From an uncultured Acidimicrobiales bacterium (GTDB lineage: Bacteria > Actinomycetota > Acidimicrobiia > Acidimicrobiales > Poriferisodalaceae), in contig CAYRJD010000031.1 of the NCBI GenBank assembly GCA_964424585.1, positions 2,352 through 66,351 of the forward strand: a DNA stretch of 64,000 nt, written 5' to 3'. Below, one piece after another: positions 6,459 through 55,796 of this stretch. The notes under the pieces are model-generated. The model saw only the letters and a program-made list of their open reading frames with translations. It was not told the DNA's origin and ran no database searches. Both the position numbers and the translations under genes were made by a program. Position 1 is the stretch's first letter; each line of letters opens with the position of its first letter.

Positions 6459-6532
6459 TGGCTCGGGGAGGAGGACTCGAACCTCCACCGTCGGGACCAA
6501 AACCCGATGTCCTGCCATTAGACGATCCCCGA
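6459..6532 (-). tRNA. tRNA-Gln (anticodon TTG)
   Basis: The reverse complement folds by hand. Acceptor TCGGGGA/TCCCCGA, D-arm GTCT-AATGGCA-GGAC, anticodon arm TCGGG-TTTTGGT-CCCGA (TTG), T-arm GGAGG-TTCGAGT-CCTCC, with GCCA encoded. Confidence 0.9.
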
Positions 6533-8446: not shown

Positions 8447-9256
8447 TCAGTAGCCCGGTGCCCAAGAACCCCCGATGGGGCCCGTCGTGCTGACAGTCAC
8501 AGCCGCCACGCCTTCGTGCGTTACATCCGGGAACGTTCCGCGCACGAAGAACGCGCCGCCGCTGCCCGCGAGCTGCGGCATCTCGCCGGTCTGGTTGCCG
8601 AGCGCGTCTCGCCACGCCGCCAGCTCGGGCGCGATTGCCAACGTTGCCGGCCACAGGTCGTTGCGCGAGCGGCTCGCTGGCCGCAGCTCGTCCCACGCCT
8701 CATACACTCGACGGGTCGACACCACCAGCGGCGGAATGAGCACCGTGAACTCTTCGTGCGCGGCAGCCAGCACCTCCACCTGCTCGCCCACACCGGTCAC
8801 CCGGGCTCGACCGCCGACCAAGCAGAACGCCACGTCCGCCCCGAGCGCCGCGGCCGCTTGAGACGTGACCGGCGGGTCGGCTCGGCCGGTCTCGTTGGCC
8901 CACCGCAGCACGGCTGCCGCGTCGGCCGACCCACCGCCCAAGCCAGCGCCCACGCCGATGCGCTTGGCCAGGCGGACGTCGGCTCGCACGCCGACCATGT
9001 CGAGCGCCCGAGTGACCAAGTTGTCGTTCGGGTCGATGGGCGTGGTCGGCTCGGCTGCGGGTGCTTCGTAGACGACGTCGACGCTCGACGTGCCTGAGGT
9101 CGGCTTGAGCGTGAGCGTGTCGTAGAGGTCGACCGTCACCATCTCGGCGTCGATGGTGTGCAGCCCAGCGTCTCGCACGCCGGTGACGAACAAGCTCAGC
9201 GTGAGTTTCGCGGGCGCCAGCAGCGCGACCGGCTCGATGAGTTCGGAGGCGCTCAC
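8447..9256 (-). CDS. ispE: 4-diphosphocytidyl-2-C-methyl-D-erythritol kinase
   Basis: APAKLTLSLFVTG and GVGAGLGGGSADAAAVLRW are GHMP kinase motifs. The likely start, GTG 9256, overlaps the rsmA stop (GTGA). Confidence 0.9.
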   Translation of the reverse strand: MSASELIEPVALLAPAKLTLSLFVTGVRDAGLHTIDAEMVTVDLYDTLTLKPTSGTSSVDVVYEAPAAEPTTPIDPNDNLVTRALDMVGVRADVRLAKRIGVGAGLGGGSADAAAVLRWANETGRADPPVTSQAAAALGADVAFCLVGGRARVTGVGEQVEVLAAAHEEFTVLIPPLVVSTRRVYEAWDELRPASRSRNDLWPATLAIAPELAAWRDALGNQTGEMPQLAGSGGAFFVRGTFPDVTHEGVAAVTVSTTGPIGGSWAPGY

Positions 9257-43108: not shown

Positions 43109-44440
43109 CTAGTAGCGGTGCTGCCCGCGGTGCCCGAGCGGCAGCGCGCACCGCTTGTGCGACCTCGCGCCCACGTGCTCGCAGCGAGCCGAGCCGCCTG
43201 CGGCAGCCGGCGCGCCCGCTCCCCGAGCCATGGCCTCTTCGAGGGCCGCGCCACGCGTGGCATCGACGAGCGGCGGTTCGACACGCGGCTCAGGCAGCGG
43301 CCTTACGACCACGTCGCGCAGCCAGTGGAGGTAGCCGCGATGCGCTACGCGGACGAGTTGCTGGTCAGCGTCGGCGGCGACCAGCCCGTTCGCTTCAAGC
43401 TCGCGGAGAACGACGCCGCTGTCTAGGCCAAACGTCTTCACGAGCTCCGCAATCGGCAGCTCGCCATCGGCCCGAGCCAGCAGCACCAGCGCCGCCTTTT
43501 CGTCGTCGGTGAGCGTCCGCCAGACCGGCGCGAGCAGGTCGTCGGCTACCCGCACCGCCGCTCGCCGGATGCCTTCGACCACTGCTTCATCGGTGAGGTG
43601 CCCGTCGTCTGCAGCATCCCACGCCCGTGAGCCCACCAGCTGAAGCACGTACGGGTGCCCGCCCGTTGCGGCGACGAACCGATCGAGCGCGGCGGGCTCG
43701 ATGTCGCCGCCTCCGCTCGCGACGGTCCGAACGATGCACTGCTCGACGTCAGCAGGGTCGAGGGCGTCGACATCGATGTGCTCTGCCCGAGCGAGAAACG
43801 TCGGCCCGTCAACTTGCAGCGACCGCTTGAAGCCAGACAGCGCGGCGCCAAGAACCGAGACCGGATACGCGTTGACAGCTTCTCGCACTCGGATAACCAG
43901 ATCTTCAAGAGCGCCGGGCTCGACTCGGTGAATCTCGTCGATCACCAGCAACAATCCGGTGCCGCGACGCTGCGCGAGCTGACCAACTTCGTCGAGCAGC
44001 ACCTCTAGCTGCGTGAGCGCAGACAACTCGGCCTCAGACGGCGCCGTCTGTCGAGCAACGCCGACGCGAGCACCTACCCCAGCGACCGAGCCGCCGACGT
44101 CGACCGACGCGAGCTTGCTGGCGCCTCCGTCTAGCTCCTCACGCACCCGCCGCAGCCGCACGGCCATGCCCTCAAAGACGTTCGGCCCGTGAAGCACCGG
44201 AATGACGTGCCAGCCGCGCTCAATGGCCGTGCGTTGCGCTGCCTTGAGCAGCACCGTCTTGCCGAGCCCGCGAGCACCCAGCAGCAACACCTTGCGGTGC
44301 GGCGCACCCGCCATCGCCTCCAGCCGCCCAACGATCTCGTCGCGGCCACCCAGGTAGCGCGGCTCGTCATCGAAGCCCGGAGTGAACGGGTTCGCGCGCT
44401 GCACTGGAGGTTGCGTGTCACGCTTTCGTCGCCATCGCAC
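43109..44440 (-). CDS. AAA/STAND-like ATP-binding protein with C-terminal winged helix
   Basis: NPFTPGFDDEPRYLGGRDE lead-in, VLLLGARGLGKTVLL Walker A, LLLVIDEIH Walker B, wHTH-like ALVLLARADGELPIAELVKTFGLDSGVVLRELEANGLV, Cys/His-rich tail CEHVGARSHKRCALPLGHRGQH. Confidence 0.75.
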   Translation of the reverse strand: MRWRRKRDTQPPVQRANPFTPGFDDEPRYLGGRDEIVGRLEAMAGAPHRKVLLLGARGLGKTVLLKAAQRTAIERGWHVIPVLHGPNVFEGMAVRLRRVREELDGGASKLASVDVGGSVAGVGARVGVARQTAPSEAELSALTQLEVLLDEVGQLAQRRGTGLLLVIDEIHRVEPGALEDLVIRVREAVNAYPVSVLGAALSGFKRSLQVDGPTFLARAEHIDVDALDPADVEQCIVRTVASGGGDIEPAALDRFVAATGGHPYVLQLVGSRAWDAADDGHLTDEAVVEGIRRAAVRVADDLLAPVWRTLTDDEKAALVLLARADGELPIAELVKTFGLDSGVVLRELEANGLVAADADQQLVRVAHRGYLHWLRDVVVRPLPEPRVEPPLVDATRGAALEEAMARGAGAPAAAGGSARCEHVGARSHKRCALPLGHRGQHRY

Positions 44441-47676: not shown

Positions 47677-47930
47677 CCCCATCCCCACTTCCGGAGGGTC
47701 ACTTGGCTGCCGCGGCCCAACATGCGTCCAAAGTACACCCTGCCACCGAATCACCATCAGTGCCCAAACACATCAGTCGCGACGTCCCGCCCAGGGCCTG
47801 CCTAATGCCATGCCCACCAGTTCCAAGCACTATCAAAAATACAATTGAAGTGGTAGCTACATCGCACAGACAAAACTCCTACCAAACGAGGCGCAATACA
47901 TCAAGCAACCGTGTCTGCGAAGCACACGCA

Positions 47931-49361
47931 TCAGAGCACTGACTCAAGTTCCCGCCATTCGATTTTACCCTTGGCCTCTCGAGACTGAAGGTAACCCAAG
48001 TACTCAAGTGTCTTGGCCGCAAAATCCAGTTGAACTCTCCAATTCTGCTTTTGATCAACAAACACATCACCGTTCTGCTTTTCACCAACTAACTCATCAC
48101 CGGTCCGTCTAGCATCAGAGTCAGACCAACCAAGGTCCCCTAGTTTCAACCTTACTACGTCTTCATCCTCCTCGCCCGTCATAAATGCCTCAACCACTTG
48201 ACTACGAACAACCTCATCCTCTACAAACGTGGTATCCAGCTTCTTCAACACCGCTGCTAGGTAATGCCGCCAGTTCGTCACCTCATCGCAGTTCAAGTCA
48301 AGTCCCCCACCAGTTTCCTTATCCGCCTTAGCATCCTTGGCAAACCTAACAAGAGAGCTAAGCCATGTCTCCGTACTAGGCTCATCCGGCTTCGTATTTG
48401 AAAGATCGTCCTCCAAAGCAAGAACAGGACTGACGGTAGTCGTCAGGATCAAACGCCTCAATATGTTGTTCCAATTGCACTCAAACTCATTTTCCAGCTT
48501 CTCTCTCCACTCCTTCAGTTTCTCTTCGTACGCGTTTGATGTGTCGCTATCATCTTTGCCAGGTCTCTTTTCAAACCCAAAAAAGTGATCGTCATCAAAA
48601 ACCGCAGGGCGCTGCTTCATAATATTTTCCACGGCGCTCTTGACTTTAGCTTCATCGACTTTAACTTCATCGGTTTCCTTGATTTTTCGAATTATTTCGG
48701 CAAAAATTTGGTAAAGCGCAAATGAGCGTTTGGCTTTCTTTCGATTATCTGACGTTTTCGCTTGTAGGAGTTCATGTATTGATGGCCACCTGATTTGTGA
48801 TGTGCCTTCGACGTCGTCTTTATCCAAAGCGCGTGTTGAAGTCTCTCTCGGCTCTAACCTCCAATAACCTCTTTCACTTGCGTCGAGTTTGCCATCATTC
48901 TTGAGTTCGTTTCGTGCAAAGTCAATGTTGTTGCTCCAAACCGGTAGGCGTCGTTTCTTGGTGAGCCTTAGCTGACTCTGTCCGAAGTCGAAATCGGTGC
49001 GTCCATTTTTGATCTGGTCAAACACCCTGCGGAGCACTAGGACCCAGGCAACCGTCCTGTGGGCCACTTTGACGTTTAGGCCACCAAGTACTTGTTCTAA
49101 GTGGTCACGGTAGTCCTTAGCGCGCAATTTGCTACCCTCGCCCTGGAGGGTTGGCCACTGCTTCAAGTCTTCCTTCAACTGCCCCTGAGGTTTAGCGAGG
49201 ATATCTCTAGCAATTTTGTTGAACTCATCTGATAATCCTTTAGCTTCATCTTGATGGTCTGTCTTTCGGTAGTCACATTCCTTTTTCATCTTGCAGTGAA
49301 ACTTATCAAGTTTGTCCTTGAGATGATTTAGCCTTTCGGAGAGTGTCATGTGAGATTCCAT
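47931..49361 (-). CDS. AT-rich hypothetical protein with two Mrr_N-like winged-helix modules (island gene D)
   Basis: Long open frame in AT-rich DNA, where random stops should be frequent. K/E/D-rich. VWSNNIDFARNELKNDGKLDASERGYWRLEP and C-terminal NWRVQLDFAAKTLEYLGYLQSREAKGKIEWREL resemble the Mrr N-terminal wHTH. AAGGA lies 7 nt before ATG 49361; the track start 49397 and ATG 49349 are alternatives. Confidence 0.6.
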   Translation of the reverse strand: MESHMTLSERLNHLKDKLDKFHCKMKKECDYRKTDHQDEAKGLSDEFNKIARDILAKPQGQLKEDLKQWPTLQGEGSKLRAKDYRDHLEQVLGGLNVKVAHRTVAWVLVLRRVFDQIKNGRTDFDFGQSQLRLTKKRRLPVWSNNIDFARNELKNDGKLDASERGYWRLEPRETSTRALDKDDVEGTSQIRWPSIHELLQAKTSDNRKKAKRSFALYQIFAEIIRKIKETDEVKVDEAKVKSAVENIMKQRPAVFDDDHFFGFEKRPGKDDSDTSNAYEEKLKEWREKLENEFECNWNNILRRLILTTTVSPVLALEDDLSNTKPDEPSTETWLSSLVRFAKDAKADKETGGGLDLNCDEVTNWRHYLAAVLKKLDTTFVEDEVVRSQVVEAFMTGEEDEDVVRLKLGDLGWSDSDARRTGDELVGEKQNGDVFVDQKQNWRVQLDFAAKTLEYLGYLQSREAKGKIEWRELESVL

Positions 49362-49397
49362 CCTATATTCCTTTTGGGCTGTGTTGTTGTAGAGCAT

Positions 49398-50366
49398 CGA
49401 AGTGAGAGCGCGCGGGACCTAGGCGGCGTGGTGGAACTGCCCGTCCCCGTGATGGTGCTGTTATGTGGGACAATGGTGCGCGGGGTCGGCCAGCGAGTGC
49501 GGGCGCCATTGGGTCCCTGAGTGAACAGTTCGCGCGGGTCACCACAACCGCGTCGTCTTGCTGGCCTAAAATCACCTGGCAATCAACTGTTGGCCATGAG
49601 AGTTGTGGACGTCTCCGCGGAACACGCGCCGCATGACGAGGGCCATGGGCCGACGACAAGCGTAGGTGGCCGACCAGTGAAGCGTCATCACTCGCGACAC
49701 GGCCAAGGCCCACCTCGGCACGCGGGGCACTGCGTACGTAGCGCGTGGTGGTTCGACAGGCACCGACCCCTGCCTTCACTCGGTAGCTAAGGGTGGCGCG
49801 GCCGCGATGACTGCCTGTCGCAGCCAGTAGGGGTCGAACCGGGTGGGTCATGAGCATCGGCCGGTCAGCGACAAGACGTAACGGACGCGTGTCAAGACAT
49901 TGGCTCAGCGGCACAGACGCCAGCAGGACCTGGTCTTCGGATGGCACGAGCACCGCGGACATGCGCACACATGCTAGAGGGTGTTGCGTCAACTTCCAAG
50001 TCTTCCGTCGTGATGCGAGGCTTGGCGGTGCCGTGCTGGCGGGTCGGACGACGCCCGCGATGAACCATGCCGCAGCCCAACGAGACGATGTCGCTCATGA
50101 CGTCAGAGCTGCTGACCGGCAACGCGCATGCTTCCTCAAGAAGCACCGCAGGACTGCCGGGGGTCACCATTGCACGATGTGCGCATCACATTGCGTACTC
50201 TTCCTGAAAGAAGAATCGCAACGCCGACCAACCCACACAGGTGTCGATGAGCGTTTTGGCATGCGGAGCACACGGGCACGGCACCTGCTCGCAGAGTGCA
50301 ACGCTGCGCCCCTGGGTGTGCGGACTGAGGCCACCACTGCCCACGCCGAAGGCGACTGATCTGTTG
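49398..50366. other. ~970-nt segment without a credible ORF inside the island
   Basis: All six-frame ORFs here (49363-49992, 49521-49790, 49850-50359, 49892-50170) are Arg/Pro/His/Cys-rich with no SD and no recognisable motif. GC is intermediate. Confidence 0.5.
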
Positions 50367-51260
50367 TCACGGAGAGGTGGGTGGGGGTGGGGCTGCGAGG
50401 CGGGCGAAGTCGAGGAGCTGAGGGTGGTGGTGCTCGCAGCGGCGAGCGACGGCGGTCATGACGTCCCAGAGGCGAACGTCTGGTGCGGCACGGGCGGCGC
50501 TGCACACGGCACCCATCGCGCGTGGGTGGAGCAAGTTCGCATACGAGGCGCGCCCGCGGTCGGTGAAGCGCCCCCAGTCGCCCGCGCGCAGCACCTCATG
50601 GCACTCGTCTGGGGTCATCGGCTCGCTCGCATCGGCAGTGCCATCGGCTGCGACTACGGCCAGGTGTCTGCGCCACCAAGCACGAGCAACCGGCGCATCT
50701 TGGGCTGGGCGGCTGCCCCGGCTCTCAACATGACTTCCCAGGCGACGAAGGATGTTGCGGACGTCTCGGTCCAGCGCCTTGCGCTGCTTCTTGTTGAGGT
50801 CGGTGCCGTTGTCCCACGCGAGAGCGAAGCGGGAAGCGTTGAACGTCGCGCGAGGCGGCTCGGTGAACCGGCACTCTTCCAGCCACGCGATGTGCCAGAG
50901 GCACCAGGTCACCGGGTCTGATGCTTGCGACGGCGTGACGTCGCTCAGCGCCTCGTGCACTCGGACCTCCCACTCGAAAGGATACTCGTTCATGTCACTG
51001 GCAGACGTCTGCGGCAGCGGCGGAGCGTTGATGGAAGTGTCCGCGCTGAGCCCTAGCTCGTCTCGTAGGTAGCCAGCGAGGCGCAGACCGGTCACCGCTG
51101 GCCCTCGCAGGAACACCAACCGACGCTCAACCATCTCGTCATCGACGTCCGCGAACTTCCGGCAGGCAATCTTCTGCTGCCAGTCACGAAACTGCACACG
51201 GGCCGAGTCGTCCGCCTCCGTATACGCGGGCGAGGTTGTCGGATCGGGCGCGACACTCAC
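50367..51260 (-). CDS. hypothetical protein (island gene C)
   Basis: 297 aa. GTG start 6 nt after the stop of gene B. Balanced composition with W/Y/H/C-containing blocks (WCLWHIAWLEECRF). No family recognised. Confidence 0.6.
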   Translation of the reverse strand: MSVAPDPTTSPAYTEADDSARVQFRDWQQKIACRKFADVDDEMVERRLVFLRGPAVTGLRLAGYLRDELGLSADTSINAPPLPQTSASDMNEYPFEWEVRVHEALSDVTPSQASDPVTWCLWHIAWLEECRFTEPPRATFNASRFALAWDNGTDLNKKQRKALDRDVRNILRRLGSHVESRGSRPAQDAPVARAWWRRHLAVVAADGTADASEPMTPDECHEVLRAGDWGRFTDRGRASYANLLHPRAMGAVCSAARAAPDVRLWDVMTAVARRCEHHHPQLLDFARLAAPPPPTSP

Positions 51261-51266
51261 GACGAT

Positions 51267-52121
51267 CTACCCCTCGTAGTCGCCGGGTTCGACATCGGCG
51301 AGCAATTCGTCGCCCACCAGCAACGTCGCCGCGTAGAGGGAGCTGAAGCCTTCGTCGCCAGGCACCGCGCAGTCGGGGTCGGCCGCTCTCATGAGCCGAA
51401 CCAGCGAGTCACCCACGGCGTGGCGACTACCCGGCACGTCATCGCCCGCGAACTCAACTTGGTTCGGCGCGTCTGCGAGCGCCGCCGTCAATCCCGCCAG
51501 CGTGACCGCTAGCGCCGACGAACCAGACTCGTCTTGCTGGTACCGCTGGAGGTCGTCCGGGTGGAGTGACACCACCCAATGCGGCACGTCTGAGTTGGCG
51601 AACCCCAGCTTCATGCGCCGACGCTCGACGCTAGCGTCTGGCACGTACGCGACAATCGCGCTCAACGGCGAGACCAGCGGCACGTGCTGGCCGCGCACAA
51701 GCCAAGTGCCTGCGGGCACAAACACCGGTGCTTCCGCTTCCCATGCCGGATGAACTCCCTCAGGCTGGAGCTTGCAGTCCTCAACCGCCAGCAGGCCCGG
51801 CAAACCCACCAACTGTCGCGCCACCAAGTCCGTCTTGGCAATACTGGCGGTCACTCTGGTCAACCGCGCATCGGCGAGAAACAGCCGTGCGAGGTAGGTG
51901 GCCGGACTTCTCACCTCCAAGCACCATCTCGCGAAACCGTCTCGGACCAACTCTTCGAGCCCGGGCGCGCCGTTCAACTCGTGCTCGGCGACGAACTCAC
52001 CGACACGCGCCGTTCCGTGGCCACTAAATCGCACGAGGTCAACGTTCGCGTCGTAGCGCGCAGAAGGCCAATCGAGGTTCTGATAGTCCCGATGGTCGAG
52101 AACAGGGACTCTGTCGATCAC
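51267..52121 (-). CDS. hypothetical protein (island gene B)
   Basis: 284 aa. GTG 52121 overlaps the stop of gene A (GTGA). No family recognised. Confidence 0.6.
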   Translation of the reverse strand: MIDRVPVLDHRDYQNLDWPSARYDANVDLVRFSGHGTARVGEFVAEHELNGAPGLEELVRDGFARWCLEVRSPATYLARLFLADARLTRVTASIAKTDLVARQLVGLPGLLAVEDCKLQPEGVHPAWEAEAPVFVPAGTWLVRGQHVPLVSPLSAIVAYVPDASVERRRMKLGFANSDVPHWVVSLHPDDLQRYQQDESGSSALAVTLAGLTAALADAPNQVEFAGDDVPGSRHAVGDSLVRLMRAADPDCAVPGDEGFSSLYAATLLVGDELLADVEPGDYEG

Positions 52122-54094
52122 GACTGCTCCTCAACAGCCTCAACAGGCTTGAGCACCGCCACTTCCACGCGAAGCGCATCTAGCGCATCCTGGGAAACGC
52201 CAACGACATCCACCTCGAGTTCCGCCACTCCTTGTTCGGCAAGAGCTACGACGCTCGCCGCGTAATCGTCTGTGCCGTCAGCAAATCGGCAAGGTAGTGC
52301 CGCGGGCTTGACCTGCTTGTCGCACGCCGGGTCAGAACCGTTGCCCGCCAGCAGCACAATGTCGACCATCGCGTCAGCGCCGCTCGAAGTGCTCCGGTTC
52401 GATCCTCGGGCGGCGAACTTTGGTTGCCAGATGACGCGAACGTGGCCGTCTTCACGCGGAATGACCGAAGCGGGCAAGCCAGCTACACGACCCCTTGCCC
52501 GCGCTTGAGTGCGCGAGCGATTGGTGTCGCCCGGATGCTCGCCGCCGTTGGGATTTGGGTCTTCCTCCAAGGCTCTGCCCTCGTCGCTCTCGTCTTCGTC
52601 TTCGATAATCGGCGGCGGTGCTGGCTTGGCGCGCTGTGGCGGAGATCGATCGTCTAGCTCGCCGCGCAGCAAGCGAAGTGCCTCGGGCTCCCAGGTGCTC
52701 GTGTTCCGCGTCGGCACGGTTTCACGCAGCTCTTCAGCCAGAGCCCTCAACGCGCTCTTGAGCTGCGGCCCTTCCCGATTGGGTGCATTGCCCGCGTCGA
52801 CCTGGAGGTGTGAACCGGTCTCGCACGCACGCACGAGACGACCGAACGCGCCCGTAGCGTCAACGACGGCGTGAAACGCCACTTGGTCGGAAAAGTCCTT
52901 GGCCTCCAGGCGCCGAACGGCGTCGCTAATCCGCATGCCTTCTCGAAAGAGCGTCACCCGTGAACGCTCGCCGGGCGTCTCTTTCCATCTGATGCGGGCA
53001 CCGTCCAGCAGGTCATGACGCGGAGGCAACGACGTGCCCTCGGTCCACACCTTCCAGGCTGCGTGGGCATTGACCCCAGCGCCGAGTTCTTTGGCGCCAC
53101 GCGTAGCGCGCTGACGCAGTCTGATTCGTTCCAGAGCCTCCCGAAAGGCTTCAGTTCCGGCAGTGCCTTGACCACCTACCGCGGTCGACGCGCCCGTTAT
53201 CGCGTTCTCGTGCGTTACCTCCATCAGCCCGTCTTCGATTGCCACGGTGAAGTGATGCGCCACTATCTCCGCGATCCACGCACCCAGCGGATCGCGTTGC
53301 GTGTCGTCAAGTCGTCGGGGTGAGAGTGACCTATGTGCCGTGATGCAGACGGCAGTTCCCCGCTCCAAATCGCCAAGCAGCCAGTCGGGCGGATCATGCG
53401 CGGGGTACGGATCGGTGCCTATGAAGCTGTCGGCATGCGCTTCGACTGTCAAGCACCCGTGGTGCGAGCGGGCGACGGGTCTGCCGCTGTCATCAATGCC
53501 GTCGTCGGCATCTCCGTGGGTCGCCAGAAAACACTGCCCGCCCAGCATCCGGGTTCCGTCCGCCGCAATGCCACCGTAAAGCACGTACCGGAGGCGCGAG
53601 GCCGCAATGGCCGTCAGATGCCCGACACCGATCGAGCCCCTAGCGCTTGACCCTTCGTCGGTGTTGCCGCCAGACCCCTTGTTGAGCATCTTCTTGTAGC
53701 GGACGGCATCTAGGCCCTTGCCGTTATCCCGGCAGATAAGGCACGTGACGGCACCCTCGTCCAGTGCCTCAGCAATGCGCTCGCTCACCCTCCTATCTTG
53801 AGGTGATCGCCGCAGGTGCTCACCGATGCGCGCAAAAGCTCCCCTGTAGTCCGCGATGCCAGGCATCTGCGCGCTTGGCACACGTTGTGAAACAAAGTCA
53901 ACTCGAACGACTCCGTCAGCTTCATCGTCGGGCTGAGCGTCGAGCGCGTTCTGCACAAGTTCGCGAATGACGATCTCGTCGTTGACGTGTTCGTCTGCTA
54001 GAGCCGCGAAGCCGTCCTCGGTGCCCAAGTCTTTAACGAAGACGAGTCGTGCCTCGCCGCCGCTCGCCTGATCGGCCCCAGCTGCTTCGGTCAC
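52118..54094 (-). CDS. GHKL-superfamily ATPase (MutL/Hsp90/MORC-like Bergerat fold), island gene A
   Basis: N-box ELVQNALDA at 53936-53962, G1 box DNGKGL at 53711-53728, G2 box GSIGVG at 53621-53638. Start taken as GTG 54094, preceded by GAAAGGGG. The track start 54259 adds 55 Arg/Cys-rich residues. Confidence 0.75.
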   Translation of the reverse strand: MTEAAGADQASGGEARLVFVKDLGTEDGFAALADEHVNDEIVIRELVQNALDAQPDDEADGVVRVDFVSQRVPSAQMPGIADYRGAFARIGEHLRRSPQDRRVSERIAEALDEGAVTCLICRDNGKGLDAVRYKKMLNKGSGGNTDEGSSARGSIGVGHLTAIAASRLRYVLYGGIAADGTRMLGGQCFLATHGDADDGIDDSGRPVARSHHGCLTVEAHADSFIGTDPYPAHDPPDWLLGDLERGTAVCITAHRSLSPRRLDDTQRDPLGAWIAEIVAHHFTVAIEDGLMEVTHENAITGASTAVGGQGTAGTEAFREALERIRLRQRATRGAKELGAGVNAHAAWKVWTEGTSLPPRHDLLDGARIRWKETPGERSRVTLFREGMRISDAVRRLEAKDFSDQVAFHAVVDATGAFGRLVRACETGSHLQVDAGNAPNREGPQLKSALRALAEELRETVPTRNTSTWEPEALRLLRGELDDRSPPQRAKPAPPPIIEDEDESDEGRALEEDPNPNGGEHPGDTNRSRTQARARGRVAGLPASVIPREDGHVRVIWQPKFAARGSNRSTSSGADAMVDIVLLAGNGSDPACDKQVKPAALPCRFADGTDDYAASVVALAEQGVAELEVDVVGVSQDALDALRVEVAVLKPVEAVEEQS

Positions 54095-54178
54095 GGCCAG
54101 CGAACCCCTTTCGTGCGACCCCCAACTAGGCAGTCTGCCAGCAGTGCAACACCGCTTGCCGTGGCTTTCGCGGGTGCG

Positions 54179-54192
54179 TCGCACGCGTGCGA
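54179..54192. promoter_or_regulatory. perfect 14-bp palindrome TCGCACGCGTGCGA in a divergent intergenic region
   Basis: Read directly from the sequence. It lies between the GHKL gene start (54094) and the small + strand ORF (54241). CACTGC/GCAGTG and a GCGTGAC x2 repeat lie nearby (54213-54247). Confidence 0.3.
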
Positions 54193-54240
54193 GGCGTGCG
54201 CTGCGTCGGCAACACTGCAGGGCGTGACGGGCAGTGCCGC

Positions 54241-54633
54241 GTGACACACGTGAACTCATCTAGGCCGCTCGACGGCCCGTGGCGGCCGCTGACCGAAGTC
54301 GAACTGGCGAAGGTGCCAGCCCAGCTGGGCGTGTTCCAGCTCGCCGACGAACAAGGCGCCGTGCAACGCATCGGCTACGCCGGGGCACGCGAGCCGTTCG
54401 GAATGCGCAGCGCGCTGAAACGATTTCTCTGCCCGGGCGCCTCAGCTGCGGGCACGACGCCCGACACGCCAACACCGAAGCGCCAGCCGCAGCGGTTTCG
54501 CTACGAGTTCACCGCCAACTACGCCAGCCGCTACGACGAGCTGCTGATGCGCCACATCGCCGCCCACGGCCAGCTGCCCGACGCGCAGCGGCACGAGCAA
54601 GCCCGCGTCGGCAGGCTGAGCGGTGCGTCATGA
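54241..54633 (+). CDS. small conserved-looking protein with GIY-YIG-like N-terminal motif
   Basis: LGVFQLADEQGAVQRIGYAG has GVF, 10 residues, then RIG, which is GIY-YIG-like spacing. Its stop overlaps the ACAD start (ATGA). GTG candidates at 54187, 54241 and 54250. Confidence 0.45.
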   Translation: MTHVNSSRPLDGPWRPLTEVELAKVPAQLGVFQLADEQGAVQRIGYAGAREPFGMRSALKRFLCPGASAAGTTPDTPTPKRQPQRFRYEFTANYASRYDELLMRHIAAHGQLPDAQRHEQARVGRLSGAS

Positions 54634-55796
54634 ACTTTTCGCCAACGCAAGAACAGCAGCTCATCGTCGACACCGTCGCGAAGTTCGTCAGCACTGAGAT
54701 CGTCCCGCTCGAAGCCGACCTCGACCCCGACGCCGGCGAGCTCGCGCCCGAAGACGCCGAACGGCTCACCCAGATGACCAAGCAGATGGGCTTTTTTGGC
54801 CTCGACATTCCCGCCGAATACGGCGGCCCCGGCCTCGACACCACCACCCGCGCGCTGATGGCCATCGAGATGAGCAAGCACCGGGCCGGCCTCTACAACC
54901 CCTGCTACGGCACGTTCGGCGGCGCTGGACTAGCCCAGCTCTACGAGGCCACCGAGGAACAAAAGGAGCGCTGGCTCTACCCGACGCTGCGCGGCGAGAA
55001 GGTCGGCTGCTTCGCGCTGACCGAACCGACCGGCGGCTCCGACCCCGCCCGCGCCATCCGCACCCGAGCCATCAAAGACGGCGACGAGTGGGTGCTCAAC
55101 GGCGCAAAGCTGTTCATCTCAGGCGCAGACAAAGCCGACTACGCGCTGTTGTTCGCTCGCACGTCCGACGACCCCGGGCGCGCCGGCGTCACCGCCTTCA
55201 TCGTCGACACCGACACGCCCGGCTTTCACGTCCGACGGGTCGTCCACACGCTGCGCGCCACCCGCTACGCCACCGAACTCGAGTTCATCGACATGCGAGT
55301 GCCCAACGACAACGTGCTCGGCGAGGTGAACGGCGGCTTCGGCATCGCCAACGACCGGCTCAGCCGCCAACGCATTCCCTACGCCGCGGGCTGCATCGGC
55401 CCAGCCATCGTCGCCCAGCAGATGTCGATCGAGTGGGCGAAGAGCCGAGAGACGTTCGGCGGGCCGCTCGCCGACAAGCAAGCGATCCAGTGGATGATCG
55501 TCGACAACGAAATCGACATCCGCCACGCCCGCTGGTGCGTGCTCGACGCCGCGCAGAAAGCAGACGCCGGGCAGCGATTTCGCACCGAAGCGGCGATGGC
55601 GAAGCTCGTCGCCAGCGAAGCAGCCGGACGGGTCGTCGACCGAGCCATTCAAATACACGGAGGCATCGGCGTCACCAAAGACCTGCCGCTCGAACGCTGG
55701 TACCGAGAGCTGCGCATCCGCCGCATCGGCGAGGGCCCCAGCGAAGTGCAGCGGCTGATCATGGCGCGCGACATCCTGGGCGGCAGCTTCAAGTGA
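54630..55796 (+). CDS. acyl-CoA dehydrogenase
   Basis: MNFSPTQEQQLIVDTVAKF, ALTEPTGGSDPARAIRTRAIKDGDEWVLNGAKLFISG and RIGEGPSEVQR. The first 117 codons of the track ORF are shadow. Confidence 0.9.
   Translation: MNFSPTQEQQLIVDTVAKFVSTEIVPLEADLDPDAGELAPEDAERLTQMTKQMGFFGLDIPAEYGGPGLDTTTRALMAIEMSKHRAGLYNPCYGTFGGAGLAQLYEATEEQKERWLYPTLRGEKVGCFALTEPTGGSDPARAIRTRAIKDGDEWVLNGAKLFISGADKADYALLFARTSDDPGRAGVTAFIVDTDTPGFHVRRVVHTLRATRYATELEFIDMRVPNDNVLGEVNGGFGIANDRLSRQRIPYAAGCIGPAIVAQQMSIEWAKSRETFGGPLADKQAIQWMIVDNEIDIRHARWCVLDAAQKADAGQRFRTEAAMAKLVASEAAGRVVDRAIQIHGGIGVTKDLPLERWYRELRIRRIGEGPSEVQRLIMARDILGGSFK

Follow-up and report, generated by a model that had tools for sequence, protein, structure and literature searches.

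A GHKL ATPase operon of a sponge-associated actinobacterium as a possible DNA-engaging core orphaned from a putative DNA phosphorothioation cassette

What is the task of a GHKL-type ATPase that is encoded together with two proteins of no recognised fold? This question is raised by three adjacent genes, here called A, B and C, in a stretch of 64,000 nucleotides from an uncultured Acidimicrobiales bacterium (assembly GCA_964424585.1, contig CAYRJD010000031.1, positions 2,352 to 66,351). We refer to this whole stretch as the window and give all coordinates within it. An earlier note, made from the sequence alone, had proposed that A-B-C is an undescribed conflict system. Our analysis leads to a different picture: with a probability of about one in two, A-B-C serves a GHKL-based family of DNA phosphorothioation (PT) and defence systems as its ATP-driven, DNA-engaging core, and in the window this core has been orphaned from its modification enzyme. 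In the relatives, the trio combined with a sulfurtransferase gene (U2) and usually a cysteine desulfurase gene (U1) looks like a putative fifth class of DNA PT system, driven by a GHKL ATPase.

All three genes lie on the reverse strand. Gene A (52118-54094) encodes a GHKL (Bergerat-fold) ATPase of 658 aa, in which an acidic linker separates a conserved middle region from a small C-terminal domain. Its longest open reading frame (ORF) from an ATG spans 52118-54259 (713 aa), while the GTG at 54094 is the start in both the public gene call P0001 and the orthologue alignment. The GTG start of gene B (51267-52121, 284 aa) overlaps the TGA stop of A in a GTGA (GTCGTGATCG), and gene C (50367-51260, 297 aa) follows B across the junction TAG-ATCGTC-GTG, a gap of 6 nt. 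This bears out the single translational unit described in the earlier note. The three ORFs are intact, and the window copy has kept every residue that is invariant in the family. Judged by its sequence, A-B-C is a real, functional and co-translated operon.

The Bergerat motifs of A, when recomputed, fell at exactly the coordinates that the earlier note had given. On the reverse strand, motif I (N-box, ELVQNALDA, 53936-53962) covers residues 45-53 with E45, N49 and D52, and motif II (G1 box, DNGKGL, 53711-53728) covers residues 123-128 with D123, G125 and G127. Motif III (G2 box, GSIGVG, 53621-53638) covers residues 153-158 with G153, G156 and G158, and is followed by H159. The named residues of the three boxes, up to and including G158, are invariant in eight homologues that are 26-65% identical, and the alignment of homologues shows the ExxxNxxD motif with its catalytic Glu, DxGxG and GxxGxG of GHKL ATPases. 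A likely motif IV ('GT', GTAVCI, 53342-53359, reverse strand), assigned by position and sequence only, contains the invariant G246. Matches to known profiles were faint. The Pfam profile HATPase_c scored 15 bits (E 0.034) against a cut-off of 26.4, the NCBIfam profile of the sacsin ATP-binding domain (sacsin/Hsp90-like) matched weakly and under its cut-off (E 0.0035), and PDB profiles of MORC3, MORC4, MutL and Hsp90 matched weakly (E ~0.01) in motif regions (N-box) only. A crude motif scan of A detected neither a Walker A motif nor the DQHA(x)2E(x)4E endonuclease motif of MutL nor motif IV of methyltransferases, and a sequence scan detected no C-terminal features of MutL or Hsp90. The profile, PDB and motif scans thus uphold the view that A is of GHKL/GHL type and is no histidine kinase, MutL or Hsp90.

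Outside the ATP-binding fold, the middle region of A contains a motif that is a signature of the family, FREGMRI (52928-52948, reverse strand), in which R384, G386 and M387 are invariant. We regard the FR(E/N)GMRI loop as a candidate sensor of the gamma-phosphate or a candidate transducer loop. The acidic low-complexity linker, IIEDEDESDEGRALEEDPNP (52550-52609, reverse strand, residues 496-515), is poorly conserved in the alignment of homologues. With clusters formed at 50% identity, the A family comprises at least 415 clusters at E<=1e-30. Iyer, Abhiman and Aravind reportedly described, in 2008, prokaryotic MORC/paraMORC and MutL-like GHL ATPases of restriction-modification systems. A shares with these the Bergerat ATPase, the catalytic Glu in the N-box and the setting in conflict islands, and its best PDB matches, weak as they are, are MORC3, MORC4 and MutL. 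However, these matches (E ~0.01) are confined to motif regions, the MutL endonuclease motif is missing from A, and B and C are partner genes that only the A-B-C family has.

The three-gene architecture is not new, contrary to what the earlier note had supposed. It is already listed in PADLOC as PDC-M33, though uncharacterised; 'phage defence candidate' is a PADLOC term (PMC11514479). Gene A matches PDC-M33A with an E value of 1.2e-14 that covers profile positions 35-195 of 627 only, and its hhalign comparison with PDC-M33A of Ligilactobacillus reaches a probability of 99.3% (E 2e-20, 402 columns). The window's B and C have no direct match to a PADLOC model. B is linked to the family by chains of BLAST and profile matches (9e-52 to B of locus L003, then 6e-8 to B of L005), and 50 of the 52 members of its own family match PDC-M33B, the best with E 4e-14; compared by hhalign with a single Ligilactobacillus B, it gives E 0.015. 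The window's C matches the family DUF6339 under the cut-off (E 0.039), C of L001 somewhat better (0.0013), and 4 of the 23 C-family members at <=0.01; P0033 carries PF19866, and hhalign of the window's C with Ligilactobacillus C gives E 0.025. The order, adjacency and shared orientation of the three genes are as in PDC-M33. In the trio on the Ligilactobacillus salivarius megaplasmid NZ_CP047413, A, B and C match PDC-M33A/B/C over their full length (3e-156, 2e-56 and 5e-49), and the third gene is annotated as 'DUF6339 family protein'. C is therefore probably a distant relative of DUF6339, and the window trio, by these homology chains, is a very divergent member of the uncharacterised GHKL-ATPase / B / DUF6339 trio PDC-M33.

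The two trios are alike in having an A of ~650 aa, a B of ~285 aa, a DUF6339 protein of ~265-300 aa and overlapping ORFs. Both lack a sulfurtransferase, and both occupy a mobile or defence context. They differ in that B and C of the window are too divergent for the PADLOC models, and in that genes for a type I-like N6 methylase and an HsdS fragment stand directly upstream of the Ligilactobacillus trio, whereas no modification enzyme is found near the window copy. PDC-M33 is itself a computational candidate. Our literature search found no paper or experimental study on PDC-M33 or DUF6339, and no description of DUF6339, PDC-M33 or GHKL together with phosphorothioation. On the Ligilactobacillus salivarius megaplasmids (L091, L162 and L163), the PDC-M33 trio belongs to a conserved island. 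An integrase, the HsdS fragment, the N6 methylase and an 80-aa ORF come before A-B-C, and after it come MmeI fragments, a type IIG methyltransferase, a DEAD helicase (weakly PbeA-like) and a GIY-YIG nuclease.

The link to phosphorothioation comes from the relatives. With FREGMRI of gene A as a search pattern for relatives, and with one genome scanned per species, the genome census yielded 141 relatives, of which the best 80 loci were analysed using stop-to-stop ORFs and home-made hidden Markov models. The earlier note had staked its proposal on the three genes co-occurring elsewhere in conserved order. This is what we found: A-B-C stands in the same order in 76 of the 80 genome loci, in 41 metagenome loci and on the Ligilactobacillus plasmids. 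Moreover, U2 accompanies A-B-C in 75 of the 80 genome loci and U1 as well in 42, with the gene orders U2-(U1)-A-B-C or A-B-C-U2-(U1). U2, first seen upstream of distant A homologues, is a PP-loop sulfurtransferase gene of ~430-450 aa with weak matches to PAPS reductase (PAPS_reduct) and to the PADLOC models SspD (4e-8) and BrxP (3e-6). Its product has an invariant PP-loop variant FSGGRSS and likewise invariant cysteines, at C167, in the CxxC of NCxxCF(L/M)KG and in a C-terminal CDC, a cysteine pattern as would be expected for a DndC-like, iron-sulfur (Fe-S)-dependent sulfurtransferase. U1 is a DndA-type cysteine desulfurase (SspA/DndA match ~1e-135). In a reverse test on 70 metagenome loci chosen by U2 alone, A adjoined U2 in 48, and the remainder were contig-end truncations or fragments; wherever the contig permitted testing, U2 was never found without A-B-C. 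This dominant context of sulfurtransferase and desulfurase genes, which the earlier note could not see, favours DNA phosphorothioation over a generic MORC-type restriction system.

In three Acidimicrobiia loci (L017, L028 and L037) two trios surround one U2 (A-B-C-U2-A-B-C), and two A-B-C sets flanking a single U2 are also listed for L087 and L077. In four related Acidimicrobiia loci (L027, L035, L039 and L068; ~8.5-9.9 kb in locus coordinates), U2 is split at the same position into two overlapping ORFs. This may reflect a conserved frameshift, a gene divided in two or a pseudogene that the loci share.

Known PT-linked restriction partners surround the cassette in 37 of the 80 loci. A GmrSD_N (DUF262)/SspE-like protein of ~600 aa occurs in 21 loci; TIGR04095, 'DNA phosphorothioation system restriction enzyme', in 12; and a DndD-like SMC protein in 10. 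NF045808, 'phosphorothioated DNA-binding restriction endonuclease', and TIGR04096, 'PT-associated methyltransferase', were each found above cut-off in nine, and DndB/DGQHR is also among the neighbours. The GmrSD_N/SspE-like gene was seen between U2/U1 and A, or directly after C (L046, L051, L056 and L085; L034, L038, L053, L060 and others), which suggests that the cassette has a restriction partner of its own for sensing PT. In about half of the cassettes, no further restriction gene could be recognised within 10 kb. A constant modification module with a swappable restriction module is the layout of Dnd and Ssp (PMC12914056, PMC10853773), to which we liken the cassette because its neighbourhood has the same constant and swappable parts.

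These neighbours also bear on whether the system acts on DNA at all. The trio might instead aid a sulfurtransferase that acts on RNA, tRNA or a small molecule, or be a chaperone or repair paralogue, as PP-loop enzymes with Fe-S cysteines also thiolate tRNA (ThiI, MnmA, Ncs6 and TtcA; PMC12914056) and A has its weak sacsin/Hsp90-like match. We consider such a role outside defence highly improbable. The neighbours TIGR04095, TIGR04096, NF045808, GmrSD/SspE-like and DndB are specific to PT of DNA, the loci lie amid toxin-antitoxin, transposase and restriction-modification genes, the distribution over many phyla is patchy, island-borne and multi-copy, and A has no MutL or Hsp90 C-terminal features.

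Nearly all genome matches are metagenome-assembled genomes (MAGs) with sponge-symbiont names, from many phyla (L010-L089). Many of the metagenome matches (L092-L161) come from LXNI, LXNJ and MKWU, which are sponge assemblies (PMC5099237), and a smaller A-B-C-U2 subgroup comes from other JGI metagenomes. This distribution points to habitat-wide horizontal spread of the cassette. No member of the A-B-C family was found on phages or viral contigs, where the sole phage match was a marginal one to the GHKL domain. Degraded copies were observed beside transposases, with an intact copy in the same genome (L006 7573-8936, L018 3862-5836 and L152/L153); they contain a B fragment with C, A fragments, or a U2 fragment fused to a C fragment, and show frequent turnover of the cassette.

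How, then, did the window come to hold the trio alone? In a rough neighbour-joining tree of 91 A proteins, which carries no support values, the clade of the window, L001 and L090 nests inside U2-linked Acidimicrobiia clades, and its sister group consists of L003 and L010-L015, all of them U-A-B-C loci. By this tree, the U2-less state is derived. U2-less trios are rare among the relatives found via the window's A, being limited to L054 and the window clade. The window's A, B and C share 65, 68 and 77% identity with their L001 counterparts at a dS of 1.0-1.5, while the flanking proteins are 91-97% identical with a dS of 0.3-0.4. Yet dN/dS of A, B and C is only about 0.16 (0.15-0.18), and hence the trio is diverse between strains but constrained. 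All three diverged U2-less copies, which are 57-77% identical, are intact. The window copy thus appears to be a trio that was orphaned from a PT cassette and is still maintained under purifying selection.

That the operon is a decaying and now functionless relic of a PT cassette seems the least probable reading of all. The loss of U2 would fit it, as would the degraded copies elsewhere (the L006 remnant by a transposase, the A fragments of L018, and L152/L153) and the interruption of C or U2 into separate ORFs in L010, L012 and L027. A relic, however, would hardly combine three intact ORFs and a full set of family-invariant residues with the above dN/dS values sustained over a dS >1 between the window and L001, nor remain intact in three copies so far diverged from each other.

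Genes B and C could not be assigned to any family by eye in the earlier note. Scans of Pfam, NCBIfam and PADLOC and sequence and profile searches of PDB gave no usable direct family match for either protein, and they matched no metabolic or structural family in these searches. Each cassette nonetheless contained a B homologue. B is acidic by its computed isoelectric point (pI), and so is A. In the AlphaFold2 model of B, which is of moderate confidence (pLDDT 64.6), the N-terminal half is rich in beta-strands and the C-terminal part is helical. A Foldseek search against PDB gave nothing significant, only generic beta-sandwich matches (E>0.02). The model of C is all-alpha (pLDDT 89.7, pTM 0.87), and it has no match in PDB or BFVD (best E 1.5 or worse); HD-domain, DinB-like and TetR-like identities that had been considered for C were dropped because this structure search was empty. 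The C family is basic overall, with a median pI of 9.3. Crude motif scans of A-D found no PD-(D/E)xK, HNH, Walker A, MutL endonuclease or methyltransferase IV motif. In two loci, B and C are fused in single ORFs (L087, 4772-6676; L077, 14753-16141), which argues that B and C act together.

Taken as the core of a PT and defence system, A-B-C could work as follows. On binding ATP, A would dimerise and clamp or scan DNA, as GHL ATPases do, and B and C would form a complex that recognises DNA and licenses a partner enzyme. The trio would then be the counterpart of DndD-DndE, SspB-SspC or BrxC in the known PT systems. Several observations support this model. U2 depends on A-B-C but not vice versa, one U2 can be flanked by two trios, and the cassette has the constant and swappable layout of Dnd and Ssp. 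In a distant lineage a methylase is the apparent partner, which mirrors proposals made for DndD-DndE and BREX (PMC10853773, PMC12914056). The window copy descends from a cassette with U2 whose sulfurtransferase has since been lost. Purifying selection on the orphan implies that it either uses a distal U2 in trans or acts autonomously. Possibly, it serves a sulfurtransferase encoded elsewhere as an extra targeting set, comparable to A-B-C-U2-A-B-C. Alternatively, it may be a stand-alone module of DNA surveillance or defence, comparable to the U2-less PDC-M33 of Ligilactobacillus.

Several points weigh against the model of a DNA-engaging core. A scanning core that lacks its partner enzyme has no obvious output, and U2, a DndC/SspD-like gene and a cysteine desulfurase are absent throughout the 64-kb window. 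The family, PDB and model searches revealed in neither B nor C a fold for DNA binding, nuclease activity or other catalysis, and the roles given to them above are therefore guesses; the B model is of moderate confidence only, and C of the window is not basic (pI 6.15). In addition, in Tdp the sulfurtransferase together with DndA alone makes PT (PMC12914056). By this precedent U2 and U1 might suffice for modification, and A-B-C would then be the effector.

Such an effector would take the role of DndFGH, TdpAB or SspE: U2 and U1 alone would mark self DNA, and A-B-C would attack or block DNA that is unmarked. We regard this as unlikely, though it is the strongest of the alternatives. It would account for the persistence of A-B-C under purifying selection in loci that lack U2 (the window, L001/L002 and L090), and for its standing alone in L054 and in PDC-M33 of Ligilactobacillus. 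The window copy would then be an orphan effector, tolerated through an invader-specific trigger or restraint by the neighbouring gene D or a distal PT system. The classification of the trio as a defence candidate by PADLOC and the half or so of the cassettes without another restriction gene nearby agree with it as well. The pairing of a GHKL ATPase with a nuclease, as in MutL and Topo VI, is a further point in favour. In contrast, neither a nuclease motif nor a nuclease fold was found in A, B or C, and the separate, known PT-linked restriction modules in 37 of the 80 loci would be redundant. A PT-restrained effector without a PT synthase is expected to be toxic to its own cell, and two A-B-C sets that share one U2 fit specificity modules better. 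Furthermore, U2 was never found without A-B-C where the contig permitted testing, although orphan modification modules are common for real restriction-modification and Dnd pairs (PMC10853773). The precedent of TdpC, which with DndA suffices for PT synthesis (PMC12914056), remains the model for an effector role.

Among the known PT systems, TdpABC shows both the likeness and its limits. A, B and C resemble neither its hexameric translocase TdpA nor its nuclease TdpB. The parallel lies in the division into a single PP-loop enzyme that makes PT with DndA and a separate, ATPase-containing pair that restricts (PMC12914056). DndABCDE, above all its DNA-scanning core DndD-DndE with DndC and DndA, is built on the logic that the cassette of the relatives also follows. 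A cysteine desulfurase and a PP-loop/PAPS-reductase-like enzyme whose cysteines are conserved are joined by a large ATPase and by small accessory proteins, with DndB and variable nucleases nearby, and the idea of a core uncoupled from its PT enzyme has been put forward for DndD-DndE (PMC10853773). However, A is a GHKL protein without Walker A, whereas DndD is an ABC/SMC P-loop protein; B and C are unrelated to DndE, a ribbon-helix-helix protein; and both a DndC-like and a DndA-like gene are missing from the window locus. With SspABCD-SspE the relatives share U1, which matches SspA, U2, which weakly matches SspD, and the GmrSD_N/SspE-like proteins that flank or sit inside 21 of the 80 cassettes, but they have neither the DUF4007 nickase (SspB) nor the DUF6079/DUF499 P-loop ATPase (SspC), and the window has no Ssp genes. 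BREX type 4 (BrxP-BrxC-PglZ-BrxL) also combines a conserved, ATPase-containing core with a PT synthase of the PAPS-reductase type, and in sister BREX types a methyltransferase takes the place of the synthase beside the same core (PMC12914056, PMC12839542). Trios of the sponge type and of the Ligilactobacillus type mirror this contrast between PT synthase and methyltransferase. Yet homologues of PglZ, BrxL and BrxC are missing, and the ATPase is of another superfamily. PADLOC and NCBIfam scans gave no DndD, SspC or BrxC matches, and PDB sequence and profile searches with A, B and C gave no sequence match to solved structures beyond the weak motif-region matches of A.

The four recognised PT systems (Dnd, Ssp, BREX type 4 and Tdp) all combine an enzyme of the PAPS-reductase type with P-loop ATPases, and the dedicated reappraisal of the PT machinery mentions no GHKL partner (PMC12914056, PMC10853773). 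We tentatively propose, as a quite possible extension of our results, that a fifth, unrecognised PT class has the GHKL-B-DUF6339 trio as its DNA-targeting engine, with a GHKL instead of a P-loop ATPase, and has spread horizontally through sponge microbiomes. The trio would be modular, surviving autonomously or as an extra specificity set for a distal sulfurtransferase, and B and C would represent new folds for DNA recognition or processing. While the architecture of the trio was already known as PDC-M33, our literature search makes its systematic linkage to PT synthesis, and the existence of a long-lived derivative without PT, appear new. If true, a GHKL ATPase acting with two proteins of no known fold would choose PT sites by a mechanistically distinct route, in a broad family whose examined loci span many phyla. 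The dnd-type gene sets of sponge metagenomes have been called 'not functionally complete' (PMC5099237), a signal that a GHKL-PT cassette could explain. PDC-M33 gains a testable functional context, and the window copy is a natural experiment, in which a trio long kept without its modification enzyme poses what the core does alone. If PT activity is confirmed, the system would also offer a new tool for sequence-specific modification of the DNA backbone.

The surroundings of the trio in the window are those of an island, as the earlier note had claimed, and its relatives likewise lie in defence islands. Blastn synteny with L001 and L090 delimits a variable island of ~6.6 kb (47681-54236), which comprises A-B-C, a spacer and the aforementioned gene D, and is inserted between a THDPS/dapD-like gene and a DUF7508 gene (Pfam DUF7508 1.6e-12). 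The GC content is 0.52-0.65 over 47.7-54.2 kb versus ~0.69 (0.68-0.72) outside, and at third codon positions it is 0.68-0.77 in A-C, 0.51 in D and 0.86-0.89 in the flanking genes. The site is a variable hotspot. In the window, DUF7508 is followed by A-B-C, the 970-nt spacer, D and THDPS; in L001/L002, by an amidohydrolase, A-B-C-D' and THDPS; and in L090, by A-B-C, an amidohydrolase and THDPS, with D absent. No att-like flanking repeats, integrases or tRNA targets were found for the island. The spacer between C and D (49398-50366, ~970 nt) contains no convincing gene, and neither there nor elsewhere in the 64-kb window was a remnant of U2, U1 or the amidohydrolase detected. A stretch of 75 nt within the spacer (50234-50308) shows weak similarity to the flanking DUF7508 gene (tblastn E 0.005), possibly a scar left by insertion or recombination.

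Gene D (47931-49397, reverse strand) encodes a highly charged protein of 488 aa. This protein contains two winged-helix modules similar to Mrr_N and lacks any catalytic domain that could be recognised. The earlier note had placed a gene with Mrr_N-like modules beside the trio, and this holds in part: one match to Mrr_N was obtained (E 4.3e-5), at 24 bits under the Pfam cut-off of 29.5, while the second, C-terminal module is seen by eye and by similarity to the L001 orthologue only. As a component of the system, D did not stand. It is missing from L090 and from all 150 other loci, and it is only 26% identical to its L001 orthologue where the flanking genes are 91-97% identical. Its GC content is 0.467 versus 0.64-0.67 for A-C, and it lies ~970 nt from C. 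D was rejected as a fourth subunit on these grounds, and we take it as a hypervariable neighbour and no conserved partner, whose membership in the system is doubtful. No Mrr_cat (PD-(D/E)xK) nuclease domain of an Mrr-type enzyme and no PDB or PADLOC match were found in D.

It is consequently improbable that A-B-C-D is a four-part, MORC-like restriction-type system with no link to PT, in which D reads modified DNA and the trio restricts it. D does adjoin A-B-C in the window and takes the same position in L001/L002, its modules are Mrr_N-like, and the Ligilactobacillus trio lies among methyltransferase and restriction-modification genes. But the patchy occurrence, divergence, GC content and distance of D all argue otherwise, as do its lack of a nuclease domain and its sub-threshold Mrr_N score, and the window's A nests among U2-linked homologues. 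Within D, a tandem repeat of 2 x 30 nt (48043-48102), in perfect register and 87% identical, encodes a repeated GD(E/V)(L/F)V..KQN.

The host itself can be placed through an acyl-CoA dehydrogenase gene of the window (54630-55796, forward strand), whose product falls in a 90%-identity cluster with sponge-symbiont proteins of Candidatus Poriferisodalis and Acidimicrobiaceae MAGs; this clustering indicates an Acidimicrobiia actinobacterium of a sponge microbiome, and a Mycobacterium-like host, considered at first, was rejected because of it. Three housekeeping genes away from the island, a gene on the reverse strand (43109-44440) encodes a STAND-type NTPase of 443 aa (Pfam nSTAND1 2e-8, AAA_16 1.6e-9), which may be an independent defence or signalling gene. 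In addition to a normal tRNA-Gln (6459-6532), ARAGORN reported a tRNA-like gene of 98 nt on the forward strand (8950-9047) with the four-base anticodon 'cgca'.

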